A stretch of DNA of 64,000 nucleotides from the NCBI GenBank assembly GCA_951406725.2, contig OX597829.1:48174001-48238000 (forward strand), read 5' to 3'. The position numbers and the translations under genes were made by a program. The stretch is from Octopus vulgaris. Its lineage: Eukaryota. The notes beneath the pieces were generated by a model. The model had not been told where the DNA came from and searched no databases. It saw only the letters and a list, made by a program, of their open reading frames with translations. Of this stretch, positions 2,126 through 56,165 are shown piece by piece (the first letter of the stretch is position 1; the number at the start of each line of letters is the position of its first letter).

Positions 2126-4029
2126 TATGGAAGGAATGCTTTGTAACAGTGCTCACTGCATCCACCATTTTGCTGGTGATTCCCTTACGCATGTTGCAAC
2201 TCGTGCAACACCCTCCAGCCTAGTGGGGTCTATTTGGGTAGTCATTACCGGTGAGGGTTTTATAAGATCAGAGTACAAACCCTACCTCAACCACTTTTGG
2301 TTGCCTTTTTGCGAAATGCAGTGGAAGCGTTTAGTCTATTCTTTGACATGTTGGTCCCCACACAGCACTAGAGCAATGTAAAATGAAGTGTCTTGCTCAA
2401 GAACACAACATGCCACCTGGTCCAGGAATCGAACTCATGATCTGGTTGTAGTGGTTCAAGGTGTTTAAGAAGGTGTTGAGGTAAACAGATGTCATAGGCA
2501 TATGGATACCTTCGAAGTAAATAATTGAATGACATTGATTTATAGTTTAAATGATTTATTTACTGGACTTGCATTTGCTGTTGGCATACATGATTCTTCA
2601 CTACATGTATTTGTCATTAACTGCTACGAGTTGAGAGGAATAAAAACAGGGTTGTAACAAGGATGAAAGGTCTGTAACACTTGAGGGGTGCAGGTCTCAT
2701 CCCTTACATTAAATTATTGTCGAAGGAAAAGCCAAGATTTTGAATATCTTCAACAACATAGATATTTTAATTTTTCTGGATTCGCAATAATATATATATA
2801 TATATATATATATTTCCTTCAGGGCAAATCAGTAGCCATGGAGCTAGTCGCTGTGGTTAAATGGTATGAACCAAACCCTGTTTCGTTCCAGCGTAGTGTT
2901 GCTTCGCCATGTGGTGGCAGCTTGGTAGAGCTATGAAGGCGCGTCCATTCAATTTGGTGTCAGATTCGAGAGAGATTGATACATGGGAAGTTTTGCTGCT
3001 GGTAGTTCTCTGCACATGCACATGAGGGAACTTCCGGTGGCCTCCCGGAAGAAATCCACCTCTGTGCATGCGCGCTGAAGACTTCCAAAATGGTGTCACT
3101 ACAGGGTACATCTGTGGATGTGATGTGTTTGAACTGAATATGTTTTGTGTTTGTGTGTGCGTCGTTCATCTGAGAAAGTAGTAGGCTGTCTTGCGTGCCA
3201 ATCCTTTTCGTCCAGCCTTTCTCCGTCCTCTGTCTTTCTGACCCTCTCTCCACCTGTCCCTTTGCTGACCACAGTATTTACAACAGCCGTGGCAGCTAGA
3301 AGGACAGACATACTGCAGGAGAGATTGTGTCTAAACAGGTCAGCTCCTGTCCATTTGAACTTCGCCTGACATGGCTGAGGTGATAGGTCAATGGGAGATG
3401 ATTTATCATTTTTTGACAGGACAAAGAAAATTTCTTTTGCGCCTGTTGCTTCGCAGTGATTCAGACAAGCGAGAATCCTTAGCTTTGGTTTCGAATCTAA
3501 GCTTGGAGGAAAGAAGTGTTAGTTTTCACATGGTGATGGTGAGTGCAGCACCCTAACCACAGGGCCACATACCTTCATGAAGTGATACTTTATCAACTTT
3601 GGAATGATAAAAGACAATGGCATCCTTTGCAGGATTTGAACTTAGAAGCTCAAATGAATACTGCGAAGCATTTCATCCACTGCTCTAATAATGACTCAAC
3701 AAATTTGTCATCTAATCATAGAATTAGTAAAAATAGGACACATTGGATAGTGTAGTCCTAGATATACAGTTTGCTTAAAAAAAGAAAAGAAAAAAGGTCT
3801 TGGCTTGAAAACTTGATTGGTCGTATATATTTTTGCTTTTAATTGTTTCAGTCTTTGGACTGCAGGCATGCTGGGGCACCATCCTGAAGGGTTTAGACGA
3901 ACAGTTTGACCCTAGCACATTTTTCTAAGCATTGTCTCTCATTGCTGTCATGTGGTTGCCTTGTTTCTTTTCTCTAAGTATTTTAATGGACATTGTTCAG
4001 CTGAGCCTTCTCTGGTTCCTCCTTTAAGA

Positions 4030-17808: not shown

Positions 17809-17862
<54 letters not shown>

Positions 17863-17891
17863 ATTGAAAAGCAGCAAAGATATCACAAAAA

Positions 17892-17929
17892 GTGTTACTC
17901 AGAGTTTCACGTTCCTGTTCGTCGGACAG
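17892..17929 (-). ncRNA. Minimal type I hammerhead motif (55752 family), variant
   Basis: ctgt-CCGACGA-aca-ggaa-cgt-GAAAC-tctga-GTA-acac; U4>C and one mismatch each in helices I and II. Confidence 0.65.
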
Positions 17930-17971
17930 TTTTGTTTAGAATGAAACAAAAATAAGGTTATAAGCAAACAT

Positions 17972-34881: not shown

Positions 34882-35257
34882 GGTATATATAAAAAAGAAG
34901 AACAACGAAATAAGAGTATGTGTGGACTTCTCAACTGGTCTTAATGGTTGTTTAAAAAAATTACAATTATCCGCTTCCAAACCCAGAAGAAATATTTGCT
35001 AAGTGCAATGGTGGGAAAAATTTTTCCAAGCTGGATTTCTTAGAGGCCTACCTCCAATTACTGTCAGATGAAGAATGTGCTAAAGTATTAACAATCAATA
35101 CTCATAAAGGTCTGTACCATTTCAAAAGACTGCCATTTGGGGTTAAGGTCGCACCAGCAATATTTCAGCAAGTGGTGGATACTATGCTAGCAGATTGTGA
35201 GTTCACAGTTCCATACTTGGATGACATATTGATCAAAAGTGAATCAAGGGACCAACA

Positions 35258-35535
35258 GGAAACTACCACCTGCATCATCTCTTGTGAAAGGTAGGAGAGT
35301 CCAGTTTGCTGGACATTGTTGTAGAGCTGAAAAAGAGGTAATTTCTACTCTTCTCCTCTGGAAGCCATCTACTCGCAATACCAGAGGGCGCACACTCTCC
35401 TACCCTGATGTAATCTCCAAGGATACAGGCATCTAGCAACAGGACCTCCGTAATGCTATGATGGACTGTGAAGTCTGGCGTAGCATGGTAAATTCCATTG
35501 TCTCGACCACGGTCGAACAATGATGATGATGATGA
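35258..35535 (+). mobile_element. RTE-like LINE 3' fragment inserted in Gypsy RT
   Basis: RRVQFAGHCCRAEKEVISTLLLWKP..RGR..MMDCEVWRSMV with a (TGA)n tail; splits pol at DQH/IEHIEE. Confidence 0.85.
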
Positions 35536-36565
35536 TATTGAACACATAGAAGAGGTTTTCAAACAAATAAGCAATTATGGGTTTAAGGTAAGTGAGCATA
35601 AACGTGAATTTTTTTTAACAAAAATAAAGTACTCAGGACAGGTGATTGATAAAAATGGACAAAAACCAGACCCTTCTGGGATCAACACAATAAAAAAATG
35701 CCTGCTTCCACTAACAAAACAACACTACAAGCATTTTTAGGTCAAGTAAGTTATTACCAGTTGTACATACCCAAAACGTATGAGCTAAGAGCTCCGTTGA
35801 ACAAGTTGCTAAAGAAGGATTTGAAATGGAATTGGACAAACTAATGTCAGAAAGCATTTGAGGAATTAAAAAAGCAGTTAACATCAGAGTTATCATTAAC
35901 TCATTTTGACCCAAACCTGAAAATAATTGTGGCATCGGATGCCTGTGAATATGGTATAGGAGCTGTGATATTGCATAAATTTAATGATTGTAAAATCAAA
36001 GCTATTGCACATGCATTGAGAGTTCTATTACCAGCAGAAAGAAACTACAGCCAGATTGAAAAAGAAGCATTGTCATTAATCTTCGCAGTAAAAAAAATTC
36101 CATAAATTCTTACATGGGAGGAAGTTTACACTACAAACGGATCACCAACCGTTATTGTCTATTTTTGGTTCGAAAAGGGTATCCCCATGCACTCAGCAAA
36201 CCGCTTACAGCATTGGAGGATTACTATGTTGAACTACGATTTCCAGATGGAGTTTTTGGTATCAATGAAAATGGGACACGCTGACAGGTTGGCTAGACTA
36301 ATTCCAAAATATGAGGAACCTTTTGAAGACATGGTGATTGCATTGTTAAAACTAGAAATAGAACTGAAAAACATTTTGAGTAATGTAGTATAGGATTTGC
36401 CGGTAACACTGAAACAAATTAAATTGGAATCAGGAAAAGATAGGTTCATAAACGAGATTTAAAAAATGTTGAGTAACATGAAATATATAAATGAGCAAGA
36501 TGCTGGTTCAAAGCACTATTCAGTATGTGATGAGGTATTATTATATGCACAAGGACTAGTAATAA

Positions 36566-37627
36566 GTGCTGCATTACAGAGTATTAAAAGACTTCCATGT
36601 AGGACATCCGAGGATTGTCCGGCTGAAGAGCCTCATGATGGGTTACGTTTTTTTGCCAAATATGGACAAGCAAATTGAGAGACTGGTAAAACAGTGTAGG
36701 GGATGCGCTATGGCAGCAAAGGTGCGCCCAGTGCAGATTCAAGTGTGGCCAAAAACGGATTCGGCATGGTCTAGACTGCATGTGGATTTTGCAGGACCAA
36801 TAAATGACTCTCATTATATCATTGTGGTGGATAGCTATTCCAAATGGTCTGATGTGTGTAAATGTTCAAGGCCAACCACAAGTGTGACGATTGACTTCTT
36901 GGAAGAATTATTTGCTCGTTATGGGGTGCCAGATATGAGCATGTCAGATAATGGTACACAATTCACAGCAAAGGAGTTTGAAAGATTCTGTAAGTCGGTT
37001 CAGATGAAGCAAGTGTTAACTCCACCATACCATCCAAGGTCAAATGGATTAGCGGAAAGATTTGTCAACACATTCAAGAGAGCCTTAAGGAAGACCAGAT
37101 GGGAAATCCTTGAAGATACAAATATGATAAAGTTTTTGCAGGTGTATAGAATAACACTGAATCCAAATGCAGAGTCGGGTAGGTCACCCACAGATTTGAT
37201 GTTTTCCAGAAAAATTTGTTCTATCTTTGATAAATTGTTGCTGAGTAGGAAACAGAAAATAGAAAATTCGGAAAGAAGAATGAAATTTTTTAACATGGGT
37301 GAGGAAGTGTATTTTCAAATATATAGAAATGGAAAACAGGACTGGGAACAAGGAAGTATAGTTAGATGTCTAGGTAACGTGATGTACATGGTAAAAGGAC
37401 CAAAATATGAACACAGAAGGCATTTAAACCAATTTTTAAAAAAATATACCAAAAACTTAGAGAGGCGAGAGGAACCAATGGATTTATGGTATGATTTGTT
37501 TGAGGTCCCAGAACCACAAGCAGAAGCAGAACCGACACATAAGTCAAACAGGAAGAGAAAACCTACAAAAATGATGGAAATTAATGCTAAGAGAAAAAGA
37601 TATGCTAGTTTCTCACCGAGGAAATAA
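36566..37627 (+). CDS. Gypsy integrase domain, open 353-codon remnant of pol
   Basis: HxxH..CxxC zinc finger; D (LHVDFAGP), D (SDNGTQF), E (SNGLAERFV). Confidence 0.85.
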   Translation: MLHYRVLKDFHVGHPRIVRLKSLMMGYVFLPNMDKQIERLVKQCRGCAMAAKVRPVQIQVWPKTDSAWSRLHVDFAGPINDSHYIIVVDSYSKWSDVCKCSRPTTSVTIDFLEELFARYGVPDMSMSDNGTQFTAKEFERFCKSVQMKQVLTPPYHPRSNGLAERFVNTFKRALRKTRWEILEDTNMIKFLQVYRITLNPNAESGRSPTDLMFSRKICSIFDKLLLSRKQKIENSERRMKFFNMGEEVYFQIYRNGKQDWEQGSIVRCLGNVMYMVKGPKYEHRRHLNQFLKKYTKNLERREEPMDLWYDLFEVPEPQAEAEPTHKSNRKRKPTKMMEINAKRKRYASFSPRK

Positions 37628-41304: not shown

Positions 41305-41510
41305 TATCTGTAAATGTAATATGTGACAATTATTCAGTAACCATGATAAAACTCCGAGTTTTGGATGCCGAGGTGGAAATCCACGTCGCCATCTCTTCAG
41401 TTATCCGGCCATTGGATAAGAGATGGCGGCGTGGATTTCCACCTCGGCATCCAAAACTCGGAGTTTTATCATGGCTACTGAATAATTGTCACATATTACA
41501 TTTACAGATA
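41305..41510. repeat. Near-perfect palindrome, 93-bp arms and 20-bp spacer
   Basis: 41305-41397 versus 41418-41510, 2 mismatches by eye. Confidence 0.95.
41345..41405 (-). ncRNA. Type I hammerhead-like motif, G12>A
   Basis: gataa-CTGAAGA-gatg...catc-c-AAAAC-tcgga-GTT-ttatc; perfect helix I, long helix II, helix III ACTC-G-GAGT. Confidence 0.55.
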
Positions 41511-46735: not shown

Positions 46736-47428
46736 CATACATACATACATACATACATACATACATACGTACGTACGTACATACATACGTACATACATAC
46801 ATACATACATACATACATACATACATACATACATACATACATACATACATACATACATACATACATACATACATAAATACATACATACATACATACATAC
46901 ATACATACATACATACATACATACATACATACATACATACATACATACATACATACATACATACATACGTACATACATACATACATACATACATACATAC
47001 ATACATACATACATACATACATACATACATACACACATACATACATTCATACATACATGCATACATACATACATACATACATACATACATACATACATAC
47101 ATACATACGTACGTACGTACATACATACGTACATACATACATACATACATACATACATACACATGCATACATACATACATACGTACATACATTCATACAT
47201 ACATACATACATACATACATACATACATACATACATACATACGTACGTATGTACATACATACATACACATACATACATACATACATACATACGTACATAC
47301 ATTCATACATACATACATACACACATACATACGTACGTATATACATACGTACATACATACATACATACGTACGTATGTACATACATACATACATACATAC
47401 ATACATAATACATACATACATACGTAGA

Positions 47429-49442: not shown

Positions 49443-49967
49443 CAGTGGTTCCCAACCTTTGGATCTTTTCGGTTTGAACGGCAGTTTTTAAAAATAATTT
49501 CCACGTAACTAAACAACTAAACACTTTTAAACTTTGTATACTGGTAGAATGTGTTTATAAAACATCTTTTTCTCTTGGCTTTATTGAGAAAATTCTATAG
49601 TTTGTAAGATATTTGTTGTTTTTTTCCCTTCAATTTCTGCAATTTCAACCAATCAATGACGTCTATTGGGGTGAAAACATTCTGTGCCGTATGAATATGT
49701 CCCTCATTTAAGAAACGGATTGGGTTTATTTACATTTCTGAAGAAAAGAGATATCCTTCCCCCACCCCCACCCCTAACCCTAAAACAGATTGAAATGCAA
49801 TAGATTGAAACTAGGGTCATAATTATGAGTGACAATTTCATGACACCGCTAGAAAAAACTGCCGTTCAAACCGAAAAGATCCCAACCTTTTCACTACCAA
49901 GGGCCCCTTTTATTTCAATGAGTTTTATTACAGACCCCTTTTAATATGCTTATCCTTATGTATATAT

Positions 49968-50090: not shown

Positions 50091-50239
50091 ATCTAGGGGA
50101 ACATTAAAAATATGCAAGACTTTTCTTAAGCTTAAAATGTGATGTTTTTGTCGCATCATCATCGCCGTCGCCACCGCCACTGTGGGAGTCGATAAATTAA
50201 GTACCAGTGAAACACTGGGGTTGAACGTGATCGATTTGT

Positions 50240-50652
50240 GGATCTTTTCGGTTTGAACGGCAGTTTTTTCTAGCGGTGTCATATGAAATTGTCACCCATA
50301 ATTATGACCCTAGTATCGATCTATTGCATTTCAATCTGTTTTAGGGTTAGGGTGAGGGGTATGTGTATCTTTTTTCTCTTCAGAAATGTAAATAAACCCA
50401 ATCTGTTTCTTTAACGGGGGACATATTCATTCGGCACAGAATGTTTTCACCTCAATAGACGTCATTGATTGGTTGAAATTGCAGAAATTGAATAAAAAAC
50501 AACAACAAATATCTTACAAACTATAGAATTTTCTCAATAAAGCCAAGAGAAAAAGATGTTTTATAAACACATTCTACCAGTATACGAAGTTTAACAGTGT
50601 TTAGTTACGTGGAAATTATTTAAAAAAACTGCCGTTCAAACAGAAAAGATTC
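50240..50652. mobile_element. Merlin-like MITE in opposite orientation, inside a SINE C-like 3' part
   Basis: Same TIR; TSD cgatttgt/cgattagt. Confidence 0.85.
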
Positions 50653-50729
50653 CGATTAGTCCCTTCCCCAAAAATTTCAGGCCTTGTGCCTTTAGTAGAA
50701 AGTATTATTGTCGTCGTTGTTGCTTCCAT

Positions 50730-52478
50730 ACTGGGAAAATGCACAGGTAGCTGGAGTTCCGTAAGTGTTTCACGAATCGTTTCGGCAGTTTAATATTTTT
50801 CATTCCGTCTAATTATATATTTTCTATTGGAACCTTATTTTGCTAAGATTGTCTTTTTATCCCGGTGGTGGTAAGATTTCTGTGCAGTTTATTACATCCA
50901 CTTTTTTGGAACACGACGGAAGAATGATCGACGGAGGAACAAAGTGGTCCGAGCGGCGTTCTGTTGACCCAGTTTCTATTCCCGAAAGTAGCGACGGCTC
51001 GGAGTTAAAATTCATTTATCGATACAAAGAAATACAATTACGTCTCGTTGCTATGACTGCAGAAAGGAAAAAAAAACCCTGCAAAGATACAAGTCGCGGC
51101 AACGACGATATCAACAACAACAGTAACGACAATGAGAACAGCAACAGAAGTGGTGGCGCAATGGCCCAATGGTTAGGGCAGCGGACTCGCGGCTGGAGGA
51201 TCGCGGTTTCGATTCCCAGACCGGGCGTTGTGTGTGTTTATTGAGCGAAAGCACCTAAAGCTCTACGATGCTCCGGCATGGGGTGGTGGCGACCCCTGTT
51301 GTACTCTTTCGCTCCAACTTTCTCTCACTCTTTCTTCCTGTTTCTTGTCACCGACTTCCTACACAAGCGCTGAGCTTGGATGCGCATTCATCCATCCGTC
51401 GATGCTCTCGAGGACCACGTTTCGGACTTCTCCCATTTTGTGAGCTCTGGGACGAAGACCGTTCGCTCAACAACAACACAAATAGCAGAAATAGCACAAA
51501 TAGTATCAACAATATCAGAAACCCGAAATGTTTCGTCTGTGGAAATACGAATCACTTGAAAGCCTTTTGCTCCACGGGGAAAGCACGAAGTTCTTCACCG
51601 TTGCTACTAACTCCTCAAGTTGTGCACTCTACAGCTAATTCTCATCTACCTCTTATAGGGCGATTAGTAAAGGCATTATGACTGACGATTATTAAAGGCA
51701 TCGTGACATCATGACGGTGAGAATAGCCCTTGAGGCGAAACATGAAGGATGTGTTGTCAGAGCTAAGGCCCGTGCGCTAAAACTGAAGCCGTTTGATGGT
51801 CCTGAACAGAGGAAACATGGCAGCAACAAAACTATGATTGGATCTTTGACAGATCGGGACTGGTACCTGCTACACGGTTCTGAACAGATGTCTGTGACTT
51901 TCCTGCTGCATTTGGAGCAACTGTTTTGGAGAGGGCTATGGGTTGACGACGGGAGCGGACTTTCGTTCATACCTGGACGGCCTGTTGCGGTTCTCGCTAG
52001 TGAACACAAGGTTCTGCGAAAAGCTGATAACGGTCACTAAAATAAGGGCGGTAATGAGTATTCCGAGTGTTTGGTAGCTGAGGTGTGGTGATACTGTTGA
52101 AGAAGGACGCCAACAATGGGGACATACTAGGGAATTTTCGGCCCATAACTCTGCTAAACAATTTAAGATTTTGGTTATGGTGTTAGCGAAAAGGTTGGTG
52201 CTTTTCGCTGGTAGTTTAGTCGGAGAAGCACAGATGTGCACAATCCTAAACAGGTCTATTTGAGACAAGCTCCACCTTATGCAATACAGCATAGAGACTA
52301 AAGCTGGGACTAAAACTGGCTTCGGTAGTGCCCCGATCAATTTGGATCAGTCAAAAGCATTCGATATGGTCAACCAACACTACTTGGAAGCCGTCTTAAA
52401 AACAGTTGGTTTCGGACCTGTTTTCAGAGGCTGGATCGCTGCAATGCATATCGGCAACTGCTCGGTGTGTCAAAAGAA
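50730..52478 (+). mobile_element. Tx1/L1-clade LINE remnant, internally deleted; SINE D head at ~51151-51345
   Basis: ORF1-type CFVCGNTNHLKAFC knuckle; EGCVVRAKAR linker; RT NFRPITLLN..KIL..LAKRL and LDQSKAFD; 5' boundary uncertain. Confidence 0.8.
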
Positions 52479-52479
52479 G

Positions 52480-53296
52480 CAGCATATGTGCTGCTTCTTT
52501 TAGTTTTCGTATTTTCCAGTAGTGTTCTCTGTCTATTATTTTAACTTCATCCCTCAGGGGGAGGTGGTCTCCATTTTTCCATACATGATCAGCTATACAC
52601 GATTTATCAATATCTCCCCGTGTCACAGCTTTGCGATGTTCCTCTACCCTTATGTTGAGGGGGCGGCATGTTTCACCTTTGTATAATCTATCACAGCTGC
52701 ATGGGATGGAGTACAAGCAGTTCTTGACCATATTCTCTTCTATTGGTGATTTTACTCGGAGATATTTGCGTACTTTTGAATACTGTCCTGATGTCATATG
52801 AGTCGCATATCGTTTGTATCTTTTCGGAGAGGTCTTTCACATAGGGTGGACAGTTTATCAGTTTCATCCTCCCCTTTCTTCATAATTGGAGTGGAGAGTA
52901 TGCTTTTGGGGTAGTTGTTGCTTAATAGATTGTTACTGAGCTTGATCATTTCTTGGTGGTGGGTATCACAATCACTACTTATATTCATAGCTCGATGTTT
53001 TAGGCATTGAGCAATCCCTGTCTTTACACTATATGGATGGTGGGAGTTGAAGTTAAGGCATCGTCCAGTGAAGGTCAGATTGTGGTATATGGATGTCCCG
53101 AATCCATACTTGGTGCATGTTATTAATACGTCCAGGAATGCTAGCTGATTGTGTTTTTCTTTTTTCCATTGTGAATAGTATGGATGGTTTTATTGAGTTC
53201 ACATGATTAAAAAGCACTTGGACATCTTCCTGGTGGGGCCAGAGTATGGATCAACACCACTAAAACCAACCCTATGCTGATGACACCTTTATACTC
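52480..53296 (-). mobile_element. Penelope-like element fragment (RT C-terminus plus GIY-YIG endonuclease) with an inverted 5' piece
   Basis: WPH..FTME..LAFLDVLI..LNFNSHHP, then LYSIPCSCDRLYKGETCRPLNIRVEEH..IADH..RKLKEA; YADDTFIL lies on the plus strand in 53248-53296. Confidence 0.9.
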
Positions 53297-53328
53297 TTTA
53301 CTTTTTACTTTCCTACAATATAATTAAT

Positions 53329-53741
53329 GGATCTTTTCGGTTTGAACGGCAGTTTTTAAAAATAATTTCCACGTAACTAAACACTTTTAAACTTCGTATA
53401 CTGGTAAAATGTGTTTATAAAACATCTTTTTCTCTTGGCTTCATTGAGAAAATTCTATAGTTTGTAAGATATTTGTTGTTTTTTTATTCAATTTCTGCAA
53501 TTTTAACCAATCAATGACGTCTATTGAGGTGAAAACATTCTGTGCGTATGAATATGTCCCTCGTTTAAGAAACAGATTGGGTTTATTGACATTTCTGAAG
53601 AAAAAAAATACTCTTCCTACACCCCTAACCCTAACCCTAAAACAGATTGAAATGCAATAGATCGATACTAGGGTCATAATTATGGGTGACAATTTCATAT
53701 GACACCGCTAGAAAAAACTGCCGTTCAAACCGAAAAGATCC
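53329..53741. mobile_element. Merlin-like MITE
   Basis: Same TIR; perfect TSD taattaat. Confidence 0.9.
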
Positions 53742-54299
53742 TAATTAATTACTGTATCCTATACACTGTGTCCTTGCATATTAGGTGAGTATTTCAGAAG
53801 TATTTTCACCTTTTAAACAAAAACTGTCTAACACGTTCATATATGTTTTTCAATTGAAGCACTGTGAATCGTTCTGGAAATTTATTGTTTTAATAACAAG
53901 TTTTAAAATATGGATAATCGCACGAGGGACGCAGTACGAGAACGGTTGCGCGAGGAACAGCAGCAGCAAGAAATAAAGAATCAAAATCGCACGAGGTTGA
54001 GACAGCGAAGGAACGAAATAAGCCAAGAGGAGAGGGAGCATATACAATGGCATAGGAGGAGGGAAAGAGGAAATCAGCAGAGGATAGAACAAAAAATGAG
54101 CCAGGACCCAAGAGAAGTGTACTTTGGAAAATAAGAGAGATAGAGATCAACGGAATCGAGAACACATGAGTCAAGAGCAAAGGCAGCTGTACTTAGAAAA
54201 TATGAGTAACAGAGTTGGATCTCTCTCGGCCTACCAGCAAACCACAAAATCGCACCAGCCAGCATCACCACCACCATCTCCACCACCTCCAAGCCCATC

Positions 54300-54562: not shown

Positions 54563-54907
54563 GGATCTTTTCCTTTTGAACGGCAGACAATTTCTAGTTA
54601 ACTAAACACTTTAAAACTTCGTATACTGGTAGAATGTATCAAAATAAAACATTTTTTTCACTTGGCTTTCTTGAGAAAGTTGTAATTTGTTCGTTTAACG
54701 TAGTTTAATTTTTCGAATTCTAACCAATCCTATGCTCTCTTTTGAGCTTGGATTTTCAGACGAAATATCTTACAAACTATAGAATTTTCTCAATAAAACC
54801 AAGAGAAAATGATGTTTTATAAACACATTCTACCAGTATACGAAGTTTAAAACTTTTTAGTTACCTAGAAATTATGTTACAAACTGCCGTTCAAAAGGAA
54901 AAGATCC
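54563..54907. mobile_element. Merlin-like MITE, second subfamily
   Basis: TIR ggatcttttccttttgaacggcag; TSD aaagaata/aaagatta. Confidence 0.85.
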
Positions 54908-55129
54908 AAAGATTATGAGAAAAACGTTCCGTACCACCAAACCAAAAAGATTCTTTGAGTCTGTACGATGTATTTTAAGGCTAAATAGTAATTCTGTTTA
55001 CGTTTGCGTAACTGAGATATTTTGGTTGGATCATATAGTTATCGGTTTTACAATTCTCTCTATATTTTGTAACTGCTACAATATACTTTTCTACTATAGG
55101 GATAAGTTCTGAAATTTTTGGCGGGGGAG

Positions 55130-55297
55130 GGGGATCAGTCGATTAGATCGACCTCAGTACGCAACTGGTACTAAATTTATCGAAAGGATGAAAGGCGAAG
55201 TCGACCTCGGCGGAGTCTGAATTCAGAACGTAAAGATAGACGAAATACCTCTAAGCATTTCGCCCTGCGTGCTAACGTTTCTGCCAGCTCGCTGCCT
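55130..55297 (-). mobile_element. SINE family C
   Basis: Reverse complement of the C head and body. Confidence 0.8.
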
Positions 55298-55443
55298 TAA
55301 ACTGTCACGATATATAAACATTTCTCATGTCATCAGCACACAATTTACAGATGCTTACATTTTTTATACTTTCCGTGAATTTTTCACGGGTCCATATATA
55401 TATATATATACTTTATTTAAAGCAGCAGAAAATTCAACAAAAC

Positions 55444-55481
55444 CTGTTACTCTGAGTTTCACGTTCCCGTTCGTCGGACAG
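55444..55481 (-). ncRNA. Minimal type I hammerhead motif, U4>C variant
   Basis: ctgt-CCGACGA-acg-ggaa-cgt-GAAAC-tcaga-GTA-acag. Confidence 0.75.
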
Positions 55482-55751
55482 TTTATATATATATATATAA
55501 GATTAATCAGCCGAAATTGCGAGGATGATCCGGTTCTTGACTGAAGATTGAAGGCTTCGAATGTCCCGTCCGTGTTTTTTGTATCGTCTTCTAAATGTTT
55601 TACGTTCTTGTCCCAGTTTATATTTTTCTACATATAATATATATATATTGGAGTAAACACATAAATGTGAAACAAGGTGGGAAAAAGAGTACTCAAATAC
55701 CAGAGGTAGAGTAATATGCTTTATTTAAAAGCAGCAGAAATTTAACAAAAG

Positions 55752-55789
55752 CTGTTACTCGGAGTTTCACGTTGCCGTTCGTCAGACAG
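55752..55789 (-). ncRNA. Minimal type I hammerhead ribozyme, canonical core
   Basis: ctgt-CTGACGA-acg-gcaa-cgt-GAAAC-tccga-GTA-acag; all core nucleotides, GNRA loop II, predicted cut between 55756 and 55755. Confidence 0.85.
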
Positions 55790-55811
55790 TTTTTAAATAA
55801 AGAATATATAC

Positions 55812-55867: not shown

Positions 55868-55938
<71 letters not shown>

Positions 55939-56102
55939 TTAGAAAAATTGAGGTAATCAGATCAGATGGTTCATATTTGAAAACCCACTAGAATGGGAGC
56001 AAGCGCTAATCCGAATGATATGATATATATGTAAAAAATGTAATATATAAATAAATATCTACAAATATGAACCATCTGATCTGATTACCTCAATTTTTCT
56101 AA
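55939..56102. repeat. Perfect 41-bp inverted repeat within (TA)n
   Basis: 55939-55979 versus 56062-56102. Confidence 0.9.
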
Positions 56103-56126
56103 TATATATATATATATACACATATA

Positions 56127-56165
<39 letters not shown>

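Follow-up and report, generated by a model that had tools for sequence, protein, structure and literature searches.

Two hammerhead ribozyme motifs of 38 nt lie on the same strand, 308 nt apart, in the 64,000-nt stretch of Octopus vulgaris DNA analysed here (the window), and the question arises, do they bound a unit of their own, such as a circle, or have they come to lie side by side by other means? We find that both motifs, judged by their sequence, are right-hand ends (pseudo-LTRs) of a high-copy Hydra-clade Penelope-like element (PLE), very probably brought this close by separate insertions. The hammerhead pair itself is ordinary transposon debris; following it up brought to light a young PLE family of the Hydra clade whose 727-aa frames are intact.

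Re-reading the window confirmed the two motifs at 55752-55789 and 55444-55481, as well as the cut sites given in an earlier note; the predicted scissile bonds are 55756/55755 in hammerhead 1 and 55448/55447 in hammerhead 2 (Table 1). Both are minimal hammerheads of type I whose helix III, ACTC-N-GAGT, is palindromic. Read along the minus strand, hammerhead 1 (55789-55752) consists of helix I CTGT, core CTGACGA, helix II ACG-GCAA-CGT, GAA, ACTC-C-GAGT, A17 and ACAG, and hammerhead 2 (55481-55444) has the core CCGACGA, the loop GGAA and N=A. Copy 1 carries the minimal type I core CUGANGA...GAAA...UH, from which copy 2 departs by U4>C. This change and the GGAA loop had been named as what sets copy 2 apart; both are present, but N and the base after helix I differ too, and an alignment of the copies over about 80 nt has 3 gap columns and 7 mismatches, one of which falls on the truncated first base. 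Similarly, the 4 bp of helix I described earlier do pair as CTGT/ACAG, yet in copies that are not truncated the helix can continue beyond a 1-nt bulge and reach about 12-13 bp. Helix II of the pair closes with A-U in place of the usual G10.1-C11.1. AATAAA does follow each motif on the minus strand, at 55725-55720 and 55417-55412, and in other copies the AATAAAG end of the copy 1 type precedes either (TA)n or a tail. A pattern spanning both copies matched the window three times (the pair and 17892-17929) and none of 100 shuffles, and the hammerhead motif in the window is not due to chance; an Rfam scan of the window at gathering scores returned no hits. The values C, A and T of N occur in the family of the pair, but the G at 41345, which the earlier note had placed with them, is that of a different hammerhead family. 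This second family, at 41325-41500, forms an inverted pair with a long helix II and N=G, in which A takes the place of G12 in each arm; another locus (L031) holds a relative whose GAAA is intact.

Table 1. Features of the hammerhead pair and of related copies; plain numbers are positions in the window.
Feature	Position	Strand	Remarks
Hammerhead 1, minimal type I	55752..55789	-	U4, GCAA loop II, N=C; N=C subfamily
Hammerhead 2	55444..55481	-	U4>C, GGAA loop II, N=A; N=A subfamily; truncated immediately 5' of helix I
Remainder of pseudo-LTR, copy 1	55719..55751	-	extended helix I 3' strand and AATAAAG end
Optional tail (~70 nt)	55650..55718	-	start of the element's own 5' UTR
(TA)n linker	55632..55649	unstranded	
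Repeat B, independent, high-copy, TA-flanked	55499..55631	unstranded	unclassified; outside the hammerhead element
(TA)n linker	55485..55498	unstranded	
Remainder of pseudo-LTR, copy 2	55411..55443	-	AATAAAG end, then (TA)n directly (tail-less type)
Short inverted remnant of pseudo-LTR end	55792..55805	+	ahead of hammerhead 1, beside (TA)n
Third copy of the pair's family, decayed	17854..17968	-	N=T; helices I and II both altered
Full-length copy of young subfamily (L179)	G000:C1:63047000-63053500		open 727-aa frame between two hammerheads
Inverted double of two full units, young subfamily (L180)	G000:C1:64213300-64223200		open 727-aa frame

The genome searched was the 2.8-Gb assembly in 227 contigs, with interval matches on C1-C30. 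A 32-base exact pattern of the window's subtype has 1,644 matches in it and its reversed control none, thus the hammerhead belongs to a dispersed repeat family. By hand count, N is T in 43, A in 33, C in 24 and G in none of 100 listed matches of this pattern; a younger subtype with a related core variant has 3,708 exact-match copies. The two hammerhead ends of the window are only 88.5% identical to one another, but the end of hammerhead 1 is 97.5% identical over 80 nt to seven other loci and that of hammerhead 2 is 100% identical over 78 nt to another (L046), and therefore they represent two different subfamilies. These values also bear on whether the host later put an accidental pair to use, to cut RNA or as a 3'-end element, in a transcript that overlaps it. 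Nearly all hammerhead positions are kept in both motifs and AATAAA follows each, as recruitment would have it. Yet a divergence of 0-2.5% from subfamily relatives is that of undisturbed young insertions, AATAAA is a feature of the family, and the ORF list holds no exon or ORF of a host gene nearby, a long intron being possible. We regard recruitment as extremely improbable.

What, then, lies between the two motifs? BLAST of the interval falls into two blocks, the hammerhead with about 100 nt and a repeat of about 135 nt, repeat B, with (TA)n flanks. Along the minus strand come, in turn, (TA)n, an inverted end remnant, hammerhead 1, AATAAAG, tail of about 70 nt, (TA)n, B, (TA)n, hammerhead 2, AATAAAG, (TA)n; the stretch 55819-55792, around the remnant, matches 55421-55394 in inverted orientation, and longer inverted copies occur in four loci (L002, L004, L037, L049). 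The tail sequence continues into the ORF's start in L117, L179 and L180. Repeat B, which with its extension gave 3,373 first-look candidates, is best described as a high-copy family of its own: the hammerhead element is within 1.5 kb of B in 2 of 29 and 1 of 19 loci selected by B, and B lies near the hammerhead in 4 of 30 selected by the latter. The 308-nt pair thus reads as a composite, two subfamily ends joined by (TA)n and an unrelated repeat. Copies of B (55499-55631, L160-L178) have a fixed end before (TA)n on the plus strand and a variable extension of up to about 900 nt on the other side. Two readings of B were rejected, one as a plus-strand hammerhead (CTGAAGA...GAA), which by eye has neither A15.1 nor helix I, the other as a GIY-YIG-like translation, for which longer copies gave no backing.

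The junction of B with the hammerhead was followed across the genome; these searches for junctions and twins cover the best 40 candidates and 100 listed matches, a range that rare 308-nt twins with diverged junctions may escape. A pattern for the junction matched three times, in the window, in L152, where there is no hammerhead, and in L153, where B is joined directly to a 5'-truncated hammerhead end without (TA)n and the spacing is 1,019 nt. Across the junction, all 39 other BLAST matches among the best 40 scored end at (TA)n. Three loci chosen by collinear BLAST (L002, L003 and L004) hold hammerhead, tail, (TA)n and B in the order of the window, with a nearly identical linker in L002, suggesting that the join of hammerhead and B may once have been copied as a unit; none of the three has a second hammerhead on the same strand. 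In four assembled contig sets, of unrecorded library type, the repeats are present and no listed piece spans the locus, an outcome that is neutral as to expression.

Did one PLE retrotransposition, switching templates among subfamily RNAs and B RNA, build the composite in a single step? The direct join in L153 and the make-up of hammerhead 1, whose N=C body carries U4 and GCAA as the youngest subfamily does, would suit such an event, and PLE insertions are known to be complex (PMC8557442). However, all three pieces end in their own standard (TA)n junction, like stand-alone copies, and hammerhead 1 is without the U7, A11.1 and N=A of the young subfamily, making a single step very unlikely in our estimation. 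On the preferred account, that of separate insertions, 5'-truncated copies and an unrelated repeat would each have inserted into one (TA)n tract. In its favour, uniform placement of 5,000-10,000 copies predicts 2-7 same-strand pairs within 400 nt per genome. Among 100 listed matches of the 1,644-copy pattern, all eight pairs closer than 5 kb are on opposite strands; 100 listed matches of a GGAA-loop pattern include one same-strand pair, 36 nt apart. The adjacent pairs in loci retrieved for copy comparison are 10 divergent, 2 convergent and 3 same-strand (94, 308 and 1,019 nt).

The earlier note had treated the interval as a possible unit, with a circle of about 308 nt. This part of it is not supported: the ends come from different subfamilies, the spacer is an independent repeat between (TA)n tracts, the junction in the form seen in the window recurs in none of the matches scored or listed, the fold of the monomer is no better than that of shuffled sequences, and the direct pair proper to the element has a spacing of 3.35 kb. 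A related proposal makes the interval the monomer of a non-LTR retrozyme, transcribed, cut by a double hammerhead, circularised and re-inserted by the PLE protein. Its 308 nt fall within the 150-450 bp range of retrozymes (PMC7229834), retrozymes are proposed to derive from PLE ends (bioRxiv 10.64898/2026.07.22.740005), the join of hammerhead and B recurs in three loci, and the 396-nt fold of the window pair favours cross-copy helix III, with pair probabilities of 0.44-0.75. A retrozyme locus is at odds, however, with a single unit plus second end where a tandem array of 150-450 bp monomers would be looked for, with terminal copies of different subfamilies, and with a (TA)n junction of a form unique to the window among the matches scored or listed. 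Nor is the monomer a stable, highly self-paired RNA (z -1.06; 19 of 100 shuffles match its fold), the double hammerhead in complete form stands about 13 kcal/mol higher than the ensemble of the full 396-nt transcript, contacts between loop I and loop II are not evident in the window pair, and 8 of 9 Xenopus dimers tested did not cleave (bioRxiv 10.64898/2026.07.22.740005). We therefore consider a retrozyme very unlikely, and the window locus at most raw material for the birth of one from PLE ends.

That a 1-nt helix III loop implies use as a dimer, as the earlier note argued, agrees with the published minimal hammerheads of PLEs, and cross-copy helix III forms in silico. Helices I and II are predicted to form, and helix III is palindromic. 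Given that none of six pairs shows a compensatory change within the family, support for the helices comes from invariance and from comparison with File S2 of PMC8557442. For isolated 47-nt pieces the active dimer lies 4.5 kcal/mol above the best two-strand fold in the window pair and 3.8 kcal/mol above it in the pair of a young element. By these fold energies cleavage of a dimer by the window pair is plausible in the test tube; such cleavage would not show function. For minimal PLE hammerheads, Cervera and de la Pena (2014, PMC4209133) report weak activity of dimers and none of monomers. The window copies have no ORF and are likely inert fossils; should a read-through transcript cover them, a weak double hammerhead, one half of it U4>C, might form.

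The parent element was reached from longer copies, whose upstream walk led to an endonuclease frame in all four loci picked for long upstream matches, and then to RT motifs; a hammerhead lies on the same strand within the 1.5-kb flank in 10 of 30 endonuclease-selected loci. The full element comprises a pseudo-LTR with hammerhead, a 5' UTR of about 125 nt, a 727-aa frame for RT and endonuclease, a 3' UTR of about 1.0 kb, a second pseudo-LTR with hammerhead, an optional tail and (TA)n. In the younger subtype, same-strand pairs closer than 5 kb among 100 listed matches are three, at 3,352, 3,362 and 3,365 nt. These 3.35-kb units sit in two of seven retrieved stretches, with two open 727-aa frames and one frameshift; the remaining five are inverted pairs of truncated copies. 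The natural same-strand hammerhead pair of the element is 3.35 kb apart and flanks the ORF. Its 5' and 3' terminal repeats are 99.2% identical over 246 nt, and the two full-length loci (L179 and L180) 98.2% identical to each other. According to PMC4209133, most minimal PLE hammerheads are found singly in truncated copies, in close pairs on opposite strands, or about 3 kb apart around an ORF, a picture that the copy arrangement of this family, as read from its sequences, matches.

Both full-length loci hold, between the pseudo-LTRs, a single frame with RT and, C-terminally, a GIY-YIG-type endonuclease, domains assigned by motif reading and Atlas neighbours. A Pfam search of the 727-aa frame found no domains; a sequence search against PDB gave no match below E 0.17. 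In the Atlas, the closest clusters hold proteins of 697-713 aa (score 0.98-0.99), and several further clusters carry GIY-YIG or RVT_1 on part of their members. The frame reads RLRWK (RRLRWKAFFFD), SDKT (NSDKTRNLY), DFYP, GAYDGAE and YRDD; in L180 it adds CNCKNESSC for the CxCx5C linker (CNFK in L179), CRLC for CxxC and CRH for CxH, and no CCHH motif is visible by eye. RWK, DKT, a CxCx5C linker, CxxC and CxH around E and N, and a lack of CCHH are Hydra-clade markers (Craig et al. 2021, PMC8557442). Insertion into (TA)n and a hammerhead in the terminal repeat are likewise Hydra-clade features found here; the unit of 3,352-3,365 nt falls outside the "generally under 3 kb" of the clade's description, a descriptive and not a diagnostic trait. 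From motifs, hammerhead and (TA)n targeting we assign the element to the Hydra clade, as a new family of a known kind of element with a known mechanism. We found no description of the family or of a U4>C PLE hammerhead in the text of the papers searched; Lunse et al. on dimeric PLE hammerheads (via review PMC6765202) may already list U4>C variants.

Other PLE remains belong elsewhere. The fragment at 52396-53189 (minus), a broken PLE of another clade with an RT thumb and a GIY-YIG-like frame by eye and no relevant Pfam hit, was rejected as parent, since tblastn with protein pieces of the family gave no match there at E<1. Remains of a PLE that lie upstream in L061 proved misleading, being common to no other locus; they are a broken PLE with a CxxxRCxxC linker (L061:7345-8362), unrelated to the hammerhead family, upstream of a 5'-truncated copy of the latter. 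At L181:5364-5999 (minus) lies an endonuclease frame that is 35% identical to that of the hammerhead family and comes from one more Hydra-like family. Within a microsatellite tract at 47162-47279 of the window, a 70% match to the 3' UTR of the hammerhead family may be low-complexity noise. The window further holds LTR-retroelement remains with RVT_1 and integrase (rve, H2C2) hits at 34956-37627 (plus), and short elements with inverted ends or palindromic structure at 53320-53750, 49454-49885, 50239-50658, 54563-54916 and 55912-56129, the first three being 92-94% alike. A repeat at 55132-55300, with several further copies in the window, resembles a tRNA-derived SINE.

How would the full element use its hammerheads? 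By analogy with published PLE work, the two would associate by their palindromic helix III, with 8 bp flanking a single mismatch (ACTC-A-GAGT in the full element), and cut after GUA, releasing a unit-length RNA of 3.35 kb that starts just before the 5' UTR. Reverse transcription would be primed at nicked (TA)n and have two start sites, giving the tailed end of copy 1 and the tail-less end of copy 2. For a lizard PLE two reverse-transcription start sites are reported, which the tailed and tail-less ends match, and its insertion in vitro did not require cleavage by the hammerhead (PMC11167929).

The earlier note called one hammerhead fully canonical, which is literally true of the core of copy 1, but this state is probably accidental. 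A pattern for the GGAA loop that leaves both core CpGs free has 1,553 matches, and a hand count of 100 listed gives 90 C4 and 10 T4, with 7 A5, 9 T7 and 2 A8. Genome-wide, single changes at one CpG are C4>T in 93 copies and G5>A in 62, a modest T excess (p 0.016). We read U4>C as the master state of the older subfamilies, so that U4 in copy 1 arose most simply, and probably, by CpG decay, a template switch being possible; its exact loop/N combination occurs four times in the genome, twice with C4 and twice with U4. As the state of the entire family, U4>C is ruled out by the larger U4 subfamily. In the young subfamily U4 stands in all 100 listed copies. In a tree of 40 tailed copies, short, midpoint-rooted and with unsettled bootstrap, the C4, N=A group encloses seven young rows (supports 99/95 and 100/99). 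Tails diverge by 2.3% in young rows against 6.6% in the N=T group, values for N=C and N=A being noisy from mis-delimited or deleted tails. Together the tree and tails suggest that the youngest subfamily returned to U4. U4>C lowers hammerhead activity in vitro, yet is tolerated in a viroid (PMC3088659). Tentatively, the older subfamilies may have reached more than 1,500 copies while their U4>C core was weakened; CUGAUGA would then have come back in the youngest, which has intact ORFs and at least 3,708 copies, and selection for ribozyme speed may have gone with its latest burst, a course of events that we hold possible but doubtful. The function of hammerheads in Hydra-type PLEs has been called unclear (Craig et al. 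2021, PMC8557442); with U4>C and U4 subfamilies in one family, cleavage rate can be compared directly with amplification history. Searches with a CUGANGA descriptor miss whole subfamilies, and CpG decay can lend a dead copy a canonical look.

Among known systems, the closest include Hydra hammerheads of a coral and a sea cucumber in File S2 of PMC8557442, with helix I ctgt/acag, helix III actc-N-gagt and A17. These families, Hydra-2_Amil and Hydra-2_Ajap, share with the octopus family both helices and the 1-nt loop, the cut after A17, a short helix II, a position near the 3' end, (TA)n targets and the RWK/DKT/CxCx5C protein motifs. The older octopus subfamilies differ in their core, CCGACGA, whereas all 26 Hydra rows of the file start ctga; helix II has only 2-3 bp, and the unit measures 3.35 kb with a 3' UTR of about 1 kb, against less than 3 kb for most families listed there. 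Hydra-1_Obim, an octopus element described there too (PMC8557442), is alike by eye in the clade motifs RMRWKAFFFD, SDKT, NPKCRLINPAK, DFYP, GAYD and YRDD and in (TA)n targeting; it is a different family, with helix I gagaaa, helix III acca-a-tggt, a 7-bp helix II and 2,507 bp. The metazoan non-LTR retrozymes (Cervera and de la Pena 2020, PMC7229834) resemble the window in a same-strand type I pair a few hundred nt apart and in low GC, but the window has no tandem array, its ends are not identical, its spacer is composite, its fold is not unusually stable and its hammerheads are minimal, not canonical. From the minimal PLE hammerheads of metazoans (PMC4209133) the octopus motifs differ in A-U instead of G-C at 10.1-11.1 and in the U4>C variant, which the available text of that paper does not mention. 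With them they share a dimer-requiring palindromic helix III, mostly single truncated copies, close pairs that are usually on opposite strands, direct pairs about 3 kb apart around the ORF, and low in vitro activity, predicted from sequence for the window pair.
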